In this document: piece after piece, positions 51,699 through 61,011 of the stretch | Position numbering within the stretch: position 1 is the first letter of the stretch | Layout: each line of letters opens with the position of its first letter | DNA from: Mayamaea pseudoterrestris | Lineage: Eukaryota | Assembly (NCBI GenBank): GCA_027923505.1 | Contig: BROI01000001.1 | Coordinates: forward strand, 496,001-560,000 | Direction: 5' to 3' | DNA length: 64,000 nucleotides | Program-made: the position numbers and the translations under genes | Notes under the pieces: model-generated | What the model was told of the DNA's origin: nothing | Databases searched by the model: none | The model's input: the letters and a program-made list of their open reading frames with translations, nothing else

Positions 51699-52115
51699 TA
51701 ATGATTGTTTAGTTTATGGTTATAACGTTTTTGGAGTGAGTAACATGTTCAAATTGGAGTCTACTCGATAGCTAGCTTGAACGGGCGCAGCGGACCTCGT
51801 CAAACTGCCAGCACTATGCACTGAAAAGTAGTGCGCAACGGAAGCTGCTGTATTGAAGGCGTCATTTCGGTTCCTATTACGTCAAATACTATCAAGCGAA
51901 GTGTACATCATACGTCATTCGGAATATTTGAACCTAATTAGCGTTCGGGAGCAAGTCGACGCACCACTCGATCTCGTCGCACGAATTCGACGAGGTCGGG
52001 CTGTTTCGCAGAAAGCCTTGCCGTCGCTGGTCGCTGCCTCCATCATCATCAAGTTGCGAGTCAAACAATCATCTTGGATATACTCTACTTTGTAGTACAG
52101 TAGCATTATAGTATC

Positions 52116-55100
52116 ATGGGTTGCGCCGCTTCCAAGCAAGCGTCGGCCGTGGATCTTCCAAGGGCGAAGCTAGATGGTACGCCGGCAGCATGATGTACTC
52201 GCTGGAACGAGAGGTTCAGTTCGTAATTTTTTCTCATACCCCTCGTCATCTCGTTCATTGACAGCCCCCAAGAATGGAAGCAATCATAATGCCAAGGCCA
52301 ATACTAATAGCAAAAACATTTCCACAACCAGCGGAGCATCCGACGAATCCGCGCGGCCGCGCCTGCATTCGTCCGGGTCGGACTGTCACGCTGCCGACGA
52401 TCGCTCGAGCGGCGGTTCCTCCAATGGCAGTGGCAACTTTCGCAGCAATAGCAAAAATCCAAAGACATTGGTCCACTCAACCTCGCAGATTGGATTGGAT
52501 GAAATGATTGAGGATCGGCGGGCCGAAGGTGATTTGAGGCAGAATGGTACGTGCAATGGAATGAAGGAATTGTAATTGCTTGTATACCTTTACTATTTAC
52601 TCAATCTCCATATATACCTCTCGTTTAGTTGTGCACATTGAAGTTCCCTTTGGTAAACCCATCGAGGAGGTGTACGATGGAGTCCACAATGGACCTGTGC
52701 TTGGCAGTGGCATTTCCGGGCTGGTGCGGCTCGTGACGCACAAGGCGACTGGCCTCAAGTATGCCGTCAAGGTTTTGGACTTGGCGCTGGTGGACACGGC
52801 GGAAGGTTTGAGGCAATTGAGAGAAGAAATCTTCATTATGTGTCAGTTGGATCATCCGAATATAGTGCGACTGGAGGAAGTGTATGAGAGTCACTCGGAA
52901 ATCTACTTGGTGCAGGAGTTGTGCCTGGGCGGAGAGCTGTTTGATCGACTGGATGAGCAGCCTGACTATCACTATACGGAATCGGAATGCGCCAAGCTTG
53001 TCAAGCAGATGCTCAGTGCTGTTCGATACTTGCATTCAAAAGGTACGGAGATATTGCGTATGCATGCATGTGTAAGTAGCGGGAATTGATGATGGTCGTG
53101 GATATTCACTGAAACTTTACTTTGTACTACCGATACAGGAATCATTCATCGTGACTTGAAGCTGGAAAATTTCCTTTTTTCGAGCACTGCAAAGGACAGC
53201 GAGTTGAAAGCAATTGACTTTGGACTGTCGAAGCATTTTCGTTACGGCGAAATTCAGCATGAAGCGGTCGGAACACCATACTCTGTGGCACCAGAAGTTA
53301 TCTTGGGTAGTTACGATGAACGGTGCGATTGCTGGGCGATTGGAGTCATTACGTTTCTGCTTCTTTCGGGTGATCCTCCATTTGGCGGCTGCGGGGGCCC
53401 GGAGAGTCTCATGCAGGTGCGATCGAACATTTTGGCCGGCAAGTTCGACTTTGTGCCGGAGGATATTTGGTGCAGCGTTTCCAAACAGGCGCGCAATTTC
53501 ATTCGGACGCTCTTGGTGACGGATCCGCAAAAGCGACCGACGGCTCGCAATGCACAAAAGCATCCGTGGTTGACGGAGTGGGCCTACAAGGCGCGCGACG
53601 ACTCGGACAATGTGCTGAATCCAAACGTTGTCAAAGCCTTGGTTAATTTCAAGGAGTTTTCCGATATGCGGAAATTATTGTGCGAGGTGTTGAGCTTTAC
53701 GTTGCTGCCGGATCAAATTAAGGACTTGCGTCGAGAGTTTGAAAAAATGGACACTGACGGAAGTGGCGAAATCTCGCTGGCAGCACTAAAGCAGGTGCTT
53801 GTGGCTAACGCTGGAGCAGGATCTCTAGGTGCACTGACCGAGGAGGAAGTGGAGGACATTTTTAACGCCATGCGCGTGCGCAAGACAGAGACGAGGATTC
53901 ATTGGCACGAGTTCATTGCGGCTGGTCTGAGTCAGTGTCAAGTCGATGATCGCAATCTGAGACTGGCGTTTGATCGGTTGGATAGCGATCACAAGGGTGT
54001 AAGTCATCGTTTACGCGTGCACGTTGGATGCCGGTTTTGCAAGCAGCCCTTAACTCATTTAATTGTTTCTGTACCTTTTCGCCGACAGTATATTACGCTG
54101 GACGACATTATGGATTTGATGGGAAGCGACGCCATACAAAGCGAGGAACAAATGCGCGAAATGTGGGGCGACTCGATTCGATCTGTGAAGTGCCAGCACG
54201 CTCGTATTACATACGGAGATTTTCTTTTGCTGATGAAGGGTCAATCGAGGGAAACACCCCCATCGGCGCAGCTGAATTCTGAGTTGGGCACAGCATCGCT
54301 GAAGCCGCTCTCGGGTGGGAGGCCTCTTCTCATGGTTCGGGAAGGAGAGACAGCCTCGTCAGAAGCCATGTCACCTGTCCTGAGTGAGATTGATGAGTCT
54401 GAATTGACCATGGAGCCAGATACTGCCGACGAAGTGCCTTCAACGTCTTCGCCATTGAGCGGAGCCGCAATTGTCGACAACATGGGCTCGACCGACTTGC
54501 TTCAATATCGATCGGCCTCACCACTATCAATAACGCAGTCAGCTCCCAATACACCAGCTGGTCATCGACAAATTCTCGACATGGCAGATCTTGAATCACC
54601 AGGCTCTTACAGAGACAGGGATATATTAGCAGCTGGTCCAGGCGTTCCGGGTACATCTGCCTCATTGACGCCTCCGCAATCGCCTGAGCGCGGCGCAAAG
54701 GATTTTTGCACGCCAAACCTCGCCAACCGTTTTACGATACTAATGCCGTCGGGAAGCAACCCAAAAATTATAGTACCTGGCCTTCCAGAGATTCCGCCTC
54801 ATCCAGACACTTACCTTCGACGACAACGATCACGCTCTGTTGGTGATGACATAAATCGGCCGCAAACTCCTGGCCAAGAGAACGACGAGACTACCGACCT
54901 ACAAGCTGTAGCAGATGTGGTGATGGATATGCTTTTGCCGGAAAATGGGCACTTGCAGATGAGTCATAATGACAATGGAGGAGGATCCAAGTCACATTTA
55001 ATGTCAAATCGACAATTATATCGCGCGCATCGTCACATGCGCATGGCTGTCTTGGAAGCATCCAAACGCTTCGAGGAACAGCAAGCAGAGCACACCCGCG

Positions 55101-55585
55101 ACTTGATATTAAAGGAGCGCGAAGGCGAAAGCACAACAGAGGAGTCTGGCATGTTTATTCAGCCTGGCTTGGTGATGCGGCACGGCCACCACGGACATGT
55201 TTCATCAGAGGCGATTCGGCAGTTAATGGCCGAGAATCGCAAGCAGCAAGGCAAGTTGGTCGAGGAGGCGAATCGTCGAGGCGGGCGAGGTCGTCGCTCC
55301 CGCAAAAAGACTGCTTCCGACATGTCTGGCATGCTGAGCAGCATGGGTAATGAGGAGCTAGGCGGCGCTTTGTCGGATGCCAAGATGTCGCACGATACGA
55401 GCCCTCCAAAGTTGTCGGAACGAAAAACAATGATGTCGCGGATACCATCAGTTCAAGAAGGCCCCGACATTGCTTCACCCGACGAGGTTGGAACGGTTCG
55501 ACAAGCGACGGTACCTGGTCAATTTCGTAAGACTTCAGATCCCTTTTCCAAGCAAGGAAAGTATGGCGCGGTCTATCAAGAATGA
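52116..55585 (+). CDS. calcium-dependent protein kinase-like (5 exons)
   Basis: MGCAASK N-myristoylation/palmitoylation start. Introns 52177-52264, 52547-52628, 53043-53138 and 53999-54088. Kinase motifs GSGISG, YAVK, HRDLKLEN, DFG, GTPYSVAPE, followed by EF-hand-like loops and a long tail. Confidence 0.92.
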
Positions 55586-56721
55586 GTAAGGAATAAAGAC
55601 GCACAGTCGGGTGTGTGCTTATCTCGTATAAACTTTTTTGCATTTAATCTTGCAAGTATACTGCATCATTATCGGGAGCTGTTCAAACCGAGCGATTTGT
55701 TGGCCGATGTACTGAGCGTAATCTGCTGTTGGTCTTTAAAACTGCATCCTTGACATTCGTTGTCCACAGTGAATGCGCTGTCTTGCAACGAAGTAACCTT
55801 GGCATGCTCTACAGAAAGTCAAGTGTCAAGTTAGTACATGTATTGTACAAACCAATAAAAACTGTCGAACCTCTAGCTAGTAAACAATTGTAAAGGCTCT
55901 GCCTATTTGTACTAGGAAATGACAAAATATGTCATATGTACACTGTTCTATTGTTTATAAAGAAGCTGCTTGACCCGTTTTCAAGAGCCCTAAAATGACT
56001 CGTAGCGGCAAGCGCCACAGTAGGTGACGTGTGACATGTGCTGCCGCTACTCTTGAAAAAGTGGGGTGGAGCATTTGCAAACCGGCGCATTCGCTAGCTC
56101 GCACTTTTGATGTTGTCTCTCATGTAGTAGTTCAAAGTTTTTGCTTGTTCGCTTGCTTTGGGAGCGTCTACAAGAGCGTTTGTGGAGGTCCATTCCGACG
56201 GATGTTTTTGACCTGCATCGACACCCTTCTTCTGCGGCATGCTAAAGCGCCATTTTATGGATTCAAGTAAATCTTTTATGCGAAATGTATAAAGTATAGA
56301 AGCGATATGTAAGTATAGACTATAAAGGAAATCGAACATAGCGCTGTAAATTGAGGCTTTGACTGACGACGAGGAGGAAATGGAAGCAACAAAACATTAA
56401 TCGTGCTGCGGCGGGACCAATACTAATTCGACGACAAAACCAAGCACACTATTAGAACCCGCTTAACTTACTTGATAGATCTAGTGCTTTAAATCAATGA
56501 AAACGACCTTTTATAAGCTTTAAAAGACGAAAGTGAATGCTTTGGGCGATGGGCGATGGGCGGTCACGCTCGATTTTGCCCGAACGATCGAAATGTCACG
56601 TCGCAGCGAAACTCCAATAACGGTGAGATATTTATGTGACATAGCTCCACATCCACTCACTTTTTCTTCGTTCGACGAGGCGCGCCGCAAAACGCCGATG
56701 ATCATAACATCATAAATCACC

Positions 56722-58902
56722 ATGAGGGTTTGCCCTGCAGATAAGGCTCTTCAGAAGGGTGGCAAAGTTGGCTTCACGGGAAAGTGTTATGCATATCTGC
56801 CAAAGCTAGGAAGCAATGAATTGCAAGTCTTTTCGTTGACTGGACACCGATGGAAGTTAACCGAGCAAGGCAAGGCTAGTCGCACCATTTACATTCCAAA
56901 TACTGACTTGTACGATGTTGAACACCATGGTCGCAACTATGCCATATCCATCAAATACAAAGGCAAGCCAGGATTTTACTTTGGTGTGTTCTTGAGTGCC
57001 AACTTCCAGGATGCAGGAATGTCAACCATCACGTTCCTCGAGTGCAAGTGTAATGCCATTGAACATGGAGGGCGAGTCATTTACCCATTTTCCAACCTAC
57101 CAGCCAATGCAACATTTGATCAGGTTACGGAGTACTTTACCTTGAAAACTGTTTTGTATTCCAGTCTTGACAATAATCATTCCAAGTTCCTCAACATGCT
57201 TACTGGTAAGCCTTGCAATCCACTCGTGATTGGAAACGTCATAGCACATGAGGATGGATGTCTTCAAATGGATCCCAAAGGACCGGACAAGGTTTTTACT
57301 AGATCTATCCGAAGGCAAGAGTGTGAACCAGCAAATATTGATTTTGCCAAGCAACATGTGCCAACAACTATTACTGCAACTGAATCGACAACAGCCGAAT
57401 CGCTGATGATTGAGACGACAACGACCGATTCGTCGATGGCCAAATTGATGACGGCCGAATCGTCGAAGAATGATTTACCGACAATTAATACACCCATGGC
57501 ATCAACCGAGTTGTTGACAGGGGAATCAACCACAATTGAACTGCCACCGACCGATTCGCCAGTGGCATCCGCCAAACGTCCTCGTTCCCCCACGCCAACG
57601 ACTGGCGAATCACCAAAAAAGCAACCCAAGCTACTAAATCAACAGCAGCAGCAGAATACGAACCGCAAGAACACCAAGCAATTTCGGGAGGGCAAGAAAA
57701 CTGCCGTTTCCATCCGGGTTGGTAGGAAGCGCCGACTTCTTGGAAGCAAGTTAAAAAGTGGCAAGCGAACAACAGAAGTTGAGCTACATGCTGTCCCGCT
57801 ACTTGGCAAGAAAAACAGAGGCAAGTTTGGTCTGGTTGATGCTACAGGTTTGAAGAAACTTGCTGACAAAAGCGGGAGGCGAAAGGTACAATGCCATAAC
57901 AAGATGGTTGTGGAATTGGCGGAGCAAGTCATTGAGTTGAAGGTCATTGATACAGCTAACTCTCCAGGTGGTGTTCAAATAATCCTTGAACCTTGCGAAG
58001 CAGCAAATGTGCCTTACGATGTGGACGACAGCAATGACGTTAGTGTGAATATATGCGACTGTACTGGAGTCAAGGTAGTTGAGTGGGGCCAACTGAGTGC
58101 AGCAATCTCACAAATTGATCCAATGTTGTTCAATCTCTTTCGCTTTACTTTTGGAAACATCATGTTTGGTGGGCGAAAGGCATCGGCGATAGTTGGCCAA
58201 AACGGTTATTTCAGCAGGCGTTTGTCCGGCATAGCAGGCCCAACTCCTCTGCAATATTCTGCAAAAGACCACCAATATCATCGGCAACATTGGAAAGATT
58301 TCTTTGTTCCCGCATGCAACGTCGCAACTAATAGTCTGGAAAGTATGACCATTGCTGCCTCATCTGCTATGGATCCGAAGGTGACTGCTTTTCTACAAGA
58401 ACTTGCTATAGGAAGCCGCACGCAACGAAAAGCACTAGGTATCAATGCTATCAAGATACTTACTACTGGCATTTTGAAAAAGTGGATTTCTTTTGCAAAT
58501 ACAAGCCATATTGACAAGAACGATAAGTTGCTCGAAGTGCTGAAGGAGAAAGCCGAGCACTTGTTGAGCGAGATGGAAAAAGATACATCGAACCACCTAG
58601 TGTACAAGTACCTACTACAAATGGATGCCATGTTCTTCAACGGGATTTCAATGCCAACGCATTGTGCCTATGCATTTGCTGGAGCTTTTCCTAAAAGCTG
58701 GAAACTTTATCAGTACTTTTTATATGATGGCCTTGGCGTTGCCGTTCGCTTCACAAAAGGTTGGACACAGCAATTCTATGGAGCGGAGATTGCGCATAAT
58801 ACTGCCGTAACTGTGGCTGTTGACGGCAATGATATGGTCCATTTCCATACCAACAAGGCTGTTGTTGTTGCTTGGGGAGCAGGCGCAAGTTACCGAGAAT
58901 GA
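56722..58902 (+). CDS. 726-aa protein with C-terminal TET/JBP-like Fe(II) dioxygenase domain
   Basis: FANTSHIDKND (H596-x-D598), YFLYDGLGVAVRF and QFYGAEIAHNT (distal H692) fit the TET/JBP double-stranded beta-helix pattern. The protein also has a T/S-rich linker, basic NLS-like stretches (PKKQPK, GRKRRLL) and an unrecognised N-terminal domain. Confidence 0.6.
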   Translation: MRVCPADKALQKGGKVGFTGKCYAYLPKLGSNELQVFSLTGHRWKLTEQGKASRTIYIPNTDLYDVEHHGRNYAISIKYKGKPGFYFGVFLSANFQDAGMSTITFLECKCNAIEHGGRVIYPFSNLPANATFDQVTEYFTLKTVLYSSLDNNHSKFLNMLTGKPCNPLVIGNVIAHEDGCLQMDPKGPDKVFTRSIRRQECEPANIDFAKQHVPTTITATESTTAESLMIETTTTDSSMAKLMTAESSKNDLPTINTPMASTELLTGESTTIELPPTDSPVASAKRPRSPTPTTGESPKKQPKLLNQQQQQNTNRKNTKQFREGKKTAVSIRVGRKRRLLGSKLKSGKRTTEVELHAVPLLGKKNRGKFGLVDATGLKKLADKSGRRKVQCHNKMVVELAEQVIELKVIDTANSPGGVQIILEPCEAANVPYDVDDSNDVSVNICDCTGVKVVEWGQLSAAISQIDPMLFNLFRFTFGNIMFGGRKASAIVGQNGYFSRRLSGIAGPTPLQYSAKDHQYHRQHWKDFFVPACNVATNSLESMTIAASSAMDPKVTAFLQELAIGSRTQRKALGINAIKILTTGILKKWISFANTSHIDKNDKLLEVLKEKAEHLLSEMEKDTSNHLVYKYLLQMDAMFFNGISMPTHCAYAFAGAFPKSWKLYQYFLYDGLGVAVRFTKGWTQQFYGAEIAHNTAVTVAVDGNDMVHFHTNKAVVVAWGAGASYRE

Positions 58903-59009: not shown

Positions 59010-59990
59010 GGAGCCGGATGCGATGGCTCCCAGAAACCCTTCCGGCATATGTAGTTAAGGCTGCAACAGGTGTTGCTTGCTGGTTTTGAGCCATCCTGGT
59101 CGCAAGCGATTCGATTTCCCACTAGCCAAAGGGACAGAGCCCCTCTCCTTGCTGCAGTAAATTCGAGTCGAAGCCCGCGCCAACCATATAAACCACTATA
59201 ACTAGCAAGAACCCTTCTCGCATATATAGTAAAGGCTGCAATAAGTGTTGGTTGCTGGTTTTGAGCCATCCTGGTCGCAGGCGACTCGATTTTCCCATTG
59301 CCAAAAGCACAGTCACCCACTCAACCTGCGGCAAATTCGAGTCGAAGCCCGCGCCAACCATATAAACCACTTTAACTACCAAGAACCCTTCCCGCATATA
59401 TATGCTAAACGCACAGTCTCTAACCGCAACCAGCCCGGCCAAAGGCCTGCGCCAACCATATAAACCACATTAGCACCAGGAACCCTTCCCGCATATATAT
59501 TAAAGGTTGGATCATGTGTTGGTTGCTGGTTTAGAGCCCTCCTAGTCGCAGGCGACTCGTTTGCAGCCAGTTGCCAAGGCTATCGTACATCCGTTTTCAA
59601 AGCAAGCGCCAGCCAGCTGGATTACTTTGAACAACAGGATTCCATGCCGCTTACATATATAATACTGTAACATGTGTTGATTGCTTTGTTTGAGCGATTC
59701 TGGTTGCAAGCGACTCGTTTGGAGCTGCGCAATGGAGCCGATTCGGCTCCGAGTCGTATCGTAATGACGCATGGGTGCGCACTCAGCAGCCACACAATGC
59801 GTGCGGTCGCACGCGGCAGCCAAATGGACCACTCGAAATGCCAGGAATCCATGCCGCTTACATATAAGAGGACGAAACGGTGTAAATTGTTATACTTGAG
59901 CCATCCTGGTGCGAGCGAGTCGTTTTGTAGCCGGCGCCAATGGAGCAGTAATCCACAGCAAGCGCCAAATATGTATGGACTGCCGAACTG
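59010..59990. repeat. degenerate tandem array of about six units (97-207 bp period)
   Basis: Core CA(A/G)GAACCCTTCCCGCATATATA...GTGTTGGTTGCTGGTTTTGAGCCATCCTGGTCGCA(A/G)GCGACTCG starts at about 59031, 59206, 59380 (truncated), 59477, 59635 and 59842. The first two periods are 175 and 174 bp. Confidence 0.9.
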
Positions 59991-60385: not shown

Positions 60386-61011
60386 CTACGCCTTGCGCAC
60401 ACACGTCTTCATTTCCTTCAATTGCATTTGCAGCTGCTCGAATATTTCCGTTCGTTTGGCTTCCCATGCTTGTTTTGCTTCTAAATTTGGAAGAGTGCAG
60501 TGGGCGAGCAGCTCGAGAAAGTCAACATAGGCTTGCACCGACGCCTGCATTGCCTGCAATGCATTTTTGTATTCGCATGCATAGTCGACAGTTCCAGCCT
60601 CCTTTGTGTCTTTGATGCATAGGCGAGCATTGTCCACTTGTGCCTGATAATGATAGCATGAGAATAACAGTTAGTGCAAAGTGAGGTGCGAAAATTCGAA
60701 TGAGAAAAACGTCTCAATGACGGACAACGTAGCTGCGGGCAACGCACCTTAAAATACGACAAGGCGCGATTCAGAGACTCGTCCGAAACTGGAGCCATAG
60801 TTCTCGAAGTTTTCGTTCGCCTTGTTTGATCCGCAAGTAGCATCTTTTTGAGCGCCTCCATGGTTTCGAGCGAGCGATCGATCGAAGCAACAATGGATGG
60901 AGCGGAAGACGTGGCGGCCGTGCTGGTTGCAACAGACGATAGGGAGCGCGAAGCGAGTCGCGCCGCTAGCAGCACCCGAGTCGACTGTCGTTGCATTAGA
61001 CGAGGTAGCAT
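60386..61011 (-). CDS. small probable mitochondrial helical protein (2 exons)
   Basis: R/S/A-rich presequence MLPRLMQRQSTRVLLAARLASRSLSS; a phase-0 intron at 60644-60747 (GTGCGT...ATCAG) joins ...LSYFK to AQVDNARLCIKD.... Confidence 0.6.

Follow-up and report, generated by a model that had tools for sequence, protein, structure and literature searches.

A candidate divergent TET/JBP-like dioxygenase gene in a stretch of diatom DNA

The coding sequence and its product

We analysed a 64,000-nucleotide (nt) stretch of contig BROI01000001.1, called the window below, in which position 1 is the first letter, and examined one gene in it, the open reading frame (ORF) at 56722-58902 on the plus strand. 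The ORF is uninterrupted, includes its stop codon and encodes 726 amino acids (aa). We regard its product as probably a divergent, nuclear, TET/JBP-like Fe(II) dioxygenase of the double-stranded beta-helix (DSBH) type that would act on 5-methylcytosine (5mC) in DNA, a reading that draws on conserved sequence and on a predicted structure. A sequence-only reading of this DNA had claimed the ORF and four motifs, and all of them were present under the same residue numbering. The span that it had emphasised, 58084-58902, encodes aa 455-726. Within it GQNGYFSRR occupies aa 492-500, FANTSHIDKND aa 591-601 (containing H596, D598 and D601), YFLYDGLGVAVRF aa 665-677 and FYGAEIAHNT aa 685-694 (containing H692).

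The protein begins with a conserved N-terminal domain at aa 54-205 (56881-57336, plus strand), delimited with an iterated hidden Markov model (HMM) and most conserved at N158, D178 and G187-P188-D189. Direct reading of the translation showed no hydrophobic signal-like stretch at the N-terminus. The domain is followed by a low-complexity linker at aa 215-340 (57364-57741, plus strand), which is rich in Thr, Ser and Pro and then in Lys and Arg. This change to a strongly basic character was traced over aa 215-365, and 23 of the 86 residues at aa 280-365 are Lys or Arg. The basic runs, which resemble nuclear localisation signals, are KRPRSP at 285, KK at 299, RKRR at 335 (as GRKRR), KR at 348 and RRK at 386. 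The product had been called nuclear in the sequence-only reading, and basic runs of the kind cited for this are indeed present; with these stretches as its sole basis, the claim is a weak one. The portion of the linker that is rich in Thr, Ser and Glu is encoded by three tandem 30-nt units at 57383-57473, which are 65-74% identical to the reference copy.

A further conserved segment at aa 338-440 (57733-58041, plus strand) was matched by BLASTP to three family members (P0003, P0004 and P0006) and lies directly before the modelled domain. The phmmer matches of several long homologues begin in this region or just ahead of it, at query aa 317-358. The remaining part of the protein, aa 441-726 (58042-58899, plus strand), is the predicted TET-like DSBH Fe(II)-dependent dioxygenase domain, as delimited by an AlphaFold2 model and by fold searches.

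Predicted fold and the protein family

An AlphaFold2 model made from the single sequence was poor, with a predicted local distance difference test score (pLDDT) of 42.5. The model of aa 441-726 built with a 56-sequence alignment reached a pLDDT of 85.1 and a predicted template modelling score (pTM) of 0.83. In this model a beta strand ends just before H596 and D598, H692 is part of a strand, and these blocks have a pLDDT of 94-98. A two-helix insertion at aa 605-637 separates the HxD site from the H692 site. The domain is thus predicted with confidence to be a DSBH oxygenase, and the DSBH fold expected in the sequence-only reading was borne out by the model.

The model was compared with solved structures in three ways. 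Foldseek against the PDB placed NgTET1 at ranks 1-3 (E 2.6e-3, prob 0.99-1.00), followed by CMD1 (prob 0.98-0.99), CcTet, PHD2, FTO and AlkB. Rescoring of the Foldseek list with VIA-align put TET2 first (4nm6_A, Z 13.2, 213 residues aligned, root mean square deviation (rmsd) 3.8 Å), with FTO at Z 12.1, NgTET1 at 11.6, and AlkB and CMD1 at 11.3 each. A Foldseek-independent VIA search of 48,161 chains again returned TET2 first (9hxv_A, Z 13.1) and FTO next (Z 11.2), and nearly all among the 50 matches listed were Fe(II)/2-oxoglutarate (2OG)-type oxygenases. The nearest solved relatives in Foldseek and in both VIA modes were thus TET/JBP enzymes, with a modest margin over FTO and AlkB. Among predicted viral structures (BFVD) there were five matches at E <= 1e-3, and two of the three named ones, A0A6J5MJF4 (E 2.2e-4) and the Sylvanvirus protein A0A3G5AIZ8 (E 4.2e-4), are labelled '2OGFeDO JBP1/TET oxygenase domain'; AlkB-type proteins appeared further down. 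The expectation that the best matches would be related folds was therefore confirmed by NgTET1 in Foldseek, TET2 in VIA-align and the JBP1/TET domains in BFVD.

To describe the family, the whole protein was searched by phmmer against 1.84 billion representative proteins. There were 170 relatives within E <= 1e-3; 54 of them reached E <= 1e-10 and three, including the query itself, E <= 1e-30, and every match fell on the C-terminal part of the query. We aligned 151 retrieved proteins with a local HMM (157 domain rows), and all column counts given here were taken from this alignment. The predicted metal-ligand columns were nearly invariant, with His in 143 of 144 at H596, Asp in 144 of 145 at D598 and His in 146 of 147 at H692. 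Conservation of this His/Asp/His set across about 150 homologues shows that the motifs are not due to chance. The D601 column was equally conserved (Asp in 144 of 145), as were T694 (Thr in 142 of 147), C648 (144/149), Y650 (147/149), W718 (Trp in 142 of 144) and G719 (142/144). The columns upstream were also conserved (R485 96/99, G492 95/102, N494 79/102 and Y496 91/104), and at R500 either Arg (81) or Lys (12) was found in 93 of 106. R485 and R500 lie 96-111 residues ahead of H596. R521 was conserved and R676 partly so.

The N-terminal domain was found, with an HMM iterated from aa 1-220, in 53 of the 151 family proteins, and within the phmmer list it was always accompanied by the dioxygenase. 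More than 200 aa precede the dioxygenase in 58 of the 151 proteins, and the N-terminal parts of 54 of these 58 connect to one another by BLASTP. The three-part architecture is conserved in 53 family proteins. A Pfam search of the N-terminal domain gave no match. Language-model similarity offered PF08588 (Duc1) for it with a score of 0.89, which is below the reliability line, and this assignment was not used.

Among 30 homologues that were looked up, none carried a descriptive name. Accessions were available for two Mayamaea proteins only, both annotated 'hypothetical protein', and the others were unnamed products of metagenome or run assemblies. Word-indexed homologue searches returned almost nothing past one of the Mayamaea proteins, P0002. 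This protein of 610 aa, from Mayamaea pseudoterrestris, is the closest relative with a source organism. It is 57% identical over aa 1-217 and 47% over aa 365-726, is collinear with the query from the start and N-terminus onward, has a shorter linker, and is taken, by sequence comparison, as a full-length orthologue from another diatom genus. P0002 is without exactly the 33 residues that match aa 483-515, which contain the R485...G492-N494-Y496...R500 motif. The gap is probably a mis-called intron in the gene model; otherwise it would be a real loss of a key segment. The contig that encodes P0002 also encodes, at a distance of four locus tags, a second Mayamaea protein, P0003 (307 aa), a truncated family member that comprises some of the N-terminal domain, the linker and the beginning of the dioxygenase. 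P0003 has the look of a fragment or of a copy made by local duplication.

In a few relatives the dioxygenase is followed by a long C-terminal extension that has no Pfam domain. In the P0147 cluster (12 members, up to 1659 aa), the dioxygenase lies at aa 154-419 and is followed by about 1240 aa in which no Pfam domain was found. Another relative, P0035 (1011 aa; L001 2062-5097), has about 340 additional Ser-rich N-terminal residues. A metagenome scan with P0035 found three contigs bearing an identical protein, with 33-41% GC and sparse coding. Their neighbouring genes comprised one sub-threshold aminotransferase match (26.8 bits against a cut-off of 30.5) and a 1189-aa protein without a Pfam match, and neither a transposase nor a DNA-modification partner was seen on the three contigs.

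Active site and rival readings

We compared the conserved positions with the active sites of known TET-type enzymes as described in the excerpted text of PMC7854593. CMD1, TET2 and NgTET1 have the HxD...H triad in common. The N4 group of 5mC is contacted by an Asp or Asn (CMD1 D350, TET2 N1387, NgTET1 D234), and the CMD1 numbering (H345, D347, D350) places this reader Asp at metal Asp +3; the O4 of thymine pairs poorly with an N4-reading Asp. Two Arg residues hold 2OG, R1261 and R1896 in TET2 and R224 and R289 in NgTET1. The C5-carboxylate is bound by R1896 and R289 respectively, both located after the distal His, while the upstream Arg that binds the C1-carboxylate and stacks on the base is R1261 in TET2 and R244 in CMD1. 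A base-stacking aromatic with His or Arg at +2 (Y1902/H1904 in TET2, F295/H297 in NgTET1, F416/R418 in CMD1) follows the second Arg at a distance of six residues in all three enzymes. In CMD1 the second Arg faces away and 2OG is kept out by Trp358, and the residues that bind 2OG differ by subfamily (PMC7854593).

In the ORF 56722-58902 protein, H596-I-D598-K-N-D601 (58507-58524, plus strand) would supply two metal ligands, and D601 has the same linear HxD+3 offset as the 5mC-reading Asp or Asn of TET2, NgTET1 and CMD1. With its near-invariance in the family, D601 at this offset favours a cytosine-type substrate. The distal metal-binding His would be H692, in H692-N-T694 (58795-58803, plus strand), which sits on a predicted beta strand (model residues 252-254, in a block at pLDDT 98). 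Upstream, the motif R485-x6-G492-x-N494-x-Y496-x3-R500 (58174-58221, plus strand) may contain the Arg and Asn that contact the co-substrate and the base. The last strand carries V716-A-W718-G719 (58867-58878, plus strand), for which the family consensus is F-A-W-G, so that most members have the aromatic and all but a few have Trp in place of the His or Arg.

The canonical C5-carboxylate Arg was sought as a conserved basic residue after H692, as a linear motif only, and none was found in about 145 relatives. Across columns 693-726 the highest count of Arg plus Lys anywhere was 51 of 146. Position 710, six residues ahead of the consensus aromatic, is Asp, Asn, Ser or His, with Arg or Lys in 6 of 145. 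Canonical 2OG binding is therefore not demonstrated. The family appears to keep the metal site and the cytosine-reading Asp without the canonical C5-carboxylate Arg, and either another residue would replace this Arg or the co-substrate would differ. Judged from the alignment, two departures from known TETs are real: the second Arg is missing, and the N-terminal domain, itself conserved, is new.

TET2 (4NM6, 7NE3, 9HXV) was the closest solved structure overall, with Z 13.1-13.2 over 213 residues (rmsd 3.8-4.1 Å), an HxD...H triad and an Asp or Asn at +3. However, identity was about 11-12% with no HMM or profile link, the diatom family has no conserved equivalent of R1896 past the distal His, the last strand reads F/V-A-W instead of Tyr-x-His, Cys-rich and CXXC parts were not detected in the diatom protein, and the N-terminal domain is different. 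NgTET1 (4LT5, 5CG8, 5CG9; VIA Z 10.5-11.6) has H-x-D-x-x-D in a compact DSBH of similar size. It differs in being a stand-alone domain and in having Arg289 and Phe295-x-His297, whereas the diatom family lacks both that Arg and that His; NgTET1 also matches Pfam Tet_JBP. Chlamydomonas CMD1 (7CY4-7CY8; Z 9.6-11.3), an algal TET homologue that acts as a vitamin-C-dependent 5mC glyceryl-transferase, resembles the diatom protein in its HxDxxD and, by linear motif, in lacking a functional C5-carboxylate Arg. A Trp (Trp358) lies in the co-substrate pocket of CMD1, a role that W718 may have in the diatom protein. CMD1 still retains an alignable Arg410 and Phe416-x-Arg418 and its sequence similarity to the diatom protein was undetectable. 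The 5-methylpyrimidine dioxygenases (5mYOX) of phages and giant viruses are represented by the '2OGFeDO JBP1/TET' proteins that were the best named BFVD matches; the genes of such viral enzymes usually sit with those for a glycosyltransferase, ParB or a kinase, in contrast to the ordinary nuclear neighbours of the diatom gene. FTO and AlkB share the DSBH fold (Z 10.6-12.1) but rank below TET2 both in Z and in the number of residues aligned; their chemistry, N-methyl oxidation, is different, and no AlkB-type Pfam match was found.

In the mechanism that we propose, the gene product would be a nucleo-cytoplasmic multidomain protein whose C-terminal ~290 aa form a TET/JBP-like branch. Fe(II) would be held by H596, D598 and H692, and a flipped-out 5-methylpyrimidine of DNA, most likely 5mC, would enter the pocket, where D601 would read the N4 amino group of the base. 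From the oxidising co-substrate, 2OG by default, a ferryl species would arise and attack the C5-methyl group, giving 5-hydroxymethylcytosine (5hmC) and perhaps more highly oxidised products. The Lys/Arg-rich linker and the N-terminal domain would serve nuclear import and targeting to DNA or chromatin. The ORF, the conserved residues, the predicted fold with its nearest structures and the conserved three-part build are results of the analysis; we infer which substrate and co-substrate are used, where the protein resides and what its N-terminal domain does.

Several results weigh against this reading. The whole protein gave no Pfam match even at E <= 10, and the isolated domain behaved likewise. 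PF12851 (Tet_JBP), with a gathering cut-off of 34.9 bits, was matched among 150 homologues by P0033 only, below threshold (17.7 bits, E 0.0021), and PHROGs and NCBIfam returned nothing relevant. Searches of PDB sequences by phmmer and with two family profiles gave chance matches only (STP22 and RCC1 'AWG' repeats). The Foldseek matches in the PDB have weak E-values, none at or below 1e-3. The lead of TET2 over FTO is 1.1-1.9 Z, and NgTET1 falls below FTO in VIA-align. Besides the absent basic residue after H692, the protein has Val at position 716, where most relatives have Phe. The four runs with contigs on the window (X1-X4) include none on record as RNA. In the diatom Haslea, ELISA (enzyme-linked immunosorbent assay) gave no 5hmC signal (excerpt of PMC9033121).

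Formal Pfam Tet_JBP membership is thus absent for this protein. The claim of a TET/JBP-like dioxygenase in the sequence-only reading stood as far as the fold, the nearest structures and the near-invariant HxD...H residues are concerned, and failed on the Pfam Tet_JBP model and on any sequence or profile link to a solved TET. Pfam at E <= 10 also found nothing in the 56 alignment members. In language-model features, 24 of the 30 nearest Atlas clusters have some PF12851 members (top score 0.95), with a PF12851 share of 16-19% of members in the three clusters listed, and the same features also place the domain beside a diatom-rich unnamed cluster. Thousands of mined 5mYOX contigs escape PF12851, according to the part of bioRxiv 10.1101/2025.08.14.668559 that was available, so Pfam-negative divergent TET-like enzymes are not unexpected. 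Among viral sequences, 50,697 phage records searched by tblastn with the domain gave no match, and IMG/VR scans with two family members gave no relatives. PF12851 was found in none of 5 + 401 + 401 bacterial genomes reached via the PdxS gene of the window and in none of 14 control genomes, a result that is uninformative on the diatom gene.

The structural neighbours raise the question of whether the enzyme is instead an AlkB/FTO-like oxidative N-demethylase, which would strip 1-methyladenine, 3-methylcytosine or N6-methyladenine (6mA/m6A) from DNA or RNA. FTO, AlkB, OsALKBH1 and ALKBH3 come to within 1-3 units of TET2 (Z 9.8-12.1), and FTO stands above NgTET1 in VIA-align. We nevertheless consider this unlikely, since TET2 is first in both VIA modes, NgTET1 fills Foldseek ranks 1-3, the best viral matches that carry a name are JBP1/TET with the AlkB type further down, and no AlkB-type Pfam domain occurs in the protein or in 150 relatives; the Atlas neighbours, moreover, carry Tet_JBP, and the invariant HxD+3 Asp is a TET/CMD1 feature (excerpt of PMC7854593). 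Just as improbable, in our judgement, is a TET-like scaffold that works on 5mC in DNA with a non-canonical co-substrate, as CMD1 does, and that could write a hypermodified base and not 5hmC. The lack of a conserved Arg or Lys past the distal His in about 145 relatives fits it, as does D/N/S/H at position 710 where TET2 and NgTET1 have Arg. So do the presence of CMD1 among the structural matches (prob 0.98-0.99; Z 11.3) and the invariant W718 of the family, seen beside the turned-away Arg and the blocking Trp of CMD1 (excerpt of PMC7854593). On the other hand, the argument is one from linear spacing only, TET2 outscores CMD1, and R485, R500, R521 and R676, which are variably conserved, could take over 2OG binding from a different strand, as is the case in other DSBH subfamilies.

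If the product were instead a hydroxylase of proteins or small molecules, like the prolyl/aspartyl hydroxylases or enzymes of secondary metabolism, the generic DSBH fold would be all that it has in common with TET. Prolyl hydroxylases and several biosynthetic 2OG oxygenases do appear at Z 8-10.4 and in the Foldseek list, and no sequence method assigned the family, but these structures align over about 160-180 residues against 213 for TET2, their Z is lower by 3-5, and the basic linker and HxDxxD fit a nucleic-acid enzyme; we find this reading quite unlikely. Least probable of all is a recently acquired foreign or transposon-borne gene (cargo of the KDZ/Plavaka type). The sequence-only reading had described the gene as foreign-looking and had brought up KDZ/Plavaka carriage, and neither idea was supported. 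Among 18 long ORFs this one is lowest in GC (0.456; others 0.483-0.536), a 175-bp repeat array begins 130 nt downstream, and one X2 contig joins 56358 to 58308 and so skips most of the ORF. However, the foreign look reduces to the slightly low GC, since GC at third codon positions (0.453) is not an outlier (another ORF has 0.446). No transposase domain was found in the 19 window ORFs scanned, the gene is not flanked by terminal inverted repeats, and the gene is single-copy within the window. The collinear full-length P0002, with 47-57% identity, speaks against a recent transfer or transposon-cargo status, and the three-part architecture in 53 family proteins likewise counts against it.

Returning to the preferred reading of a TET/JBP-like 5mC dioxygenase, the proposed substrate exists in diatoms, since they have 5mC and DNA methyltransferases (excerpts of PMC12344493 and PMC9033121). 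Cytosine methylation lies on repeats and silent genes and silences repeats (excerpt of PMC12344493). Literature on diatoms searched with TET/JBP terms did not describe the family, though an earlier mention is possible in a 2012 thesis or in comparative TET/JBP papers; the available part of one review cites the 2012 thesis for TET homologues in Phaeodactylum. Term searches of the accessible text of PMC12730594 (fungal transposons) and PMC11065753 (novel DNA modifications) found no mention of diatoms.

Active removal of 5mC in diatoms is unsettled, and the gene is a concrete, testable candidate, probably transcribed, single-exon and easily expressed. The family comprises at least 170 representative sequence clusters and is annotated by no curated model. 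If the enzyme is active, diatom epigenetics would gain either an enzyme that erases marks or one that writes oxidised or hypermodified bases, and the sequence definition of TET/JBP enzymes would be widened; the altered co-substrate pocket could also interest enzymology. A bolder version, which we hold to be doubtful, is an unrecognised TET-like branch in diatoms and in organisms known from environmental sequence only, which would have lost the canonical C5-carboxylate Arg and would use, like CMD1, a co-substrate other than conventionally bound 2OG, with a DNA modification not yet sought in diatoms and an N-terminal domain that is a new DNA- or chromatin-targeting module. A novel modification, if true, would explain why ELISA found no 5hmC.

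Locus, transcription and neighbouring sequence

The other long ORFs of the window encode a PIG-V mannosyltransferase, Nup98-96, a GT64 glycosyltransferase, a HEAT-repeat protein, PdxS and a 3-beta-HSD/epimerase. Further ORFs encode IQ-motif proteins, a cullin and, just upstream of the dioxygenase gene, an EF-hand protein, and all are ordinary nuclear genes.

Contigs of runs X3 and X4 skip GT..AG introns of the neighbouring genes (52175/52264, 52545/52628, 53040/53137 and 53998/54089) and also skip CT..AC at 60642/60747, so these two runs behave like transcriptome assemblies. No such spliced contigs were seen for X1 and X2. On the ORF itself, X3/X4 contigs are unspliced (56723-57210, 57414-58711 and 57754-58215). 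These contigs hint, if weakly, at transcription of the gene and at a lack of introns in the parts that they cover; they give no expression levels.

The X2 contig that joins 56358 to 58308 has a depth of 7.7, contains three extra letters at the join and skips 1949 nt, including most of the ORF. Other runs do cover 56358-58308, and the X2 contig may stem from an allele with a deletion or may be a chimera made in assembly.

In the 1.1-kb spacer upstream of the gene, X3 contigs at 56094-56476 skip 199 nt (56272/56472) with CT..AC ends, which correspond to a minus-strand GT..AG intron. This indicates a small spliced minus-strand transcript in the spacer (compare the minus-strand ORF 56094-56339). 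The upstream neighbour at 52000-55585 is the EF-hand protein, with kinase-like sequence in its ORF translation. Spliced X3/X4 contigs confirm introns at 53041-53136 and 53999-54088 in this gene, and these introns explain an out-of-context stretch inside the ORF at 53156-55585.

The repeat array downstream of the gene lies at 59035-59900, about 130 nt past the stop codon, and contains 2.1 good copies of a 175-bp unit together with degenerate ones. The core 24-mer of the array occurs nowhere else in the window. An X1 contig joins 58987 to 59548 and skips 560 nt at the array, which suggests allelic length variation.

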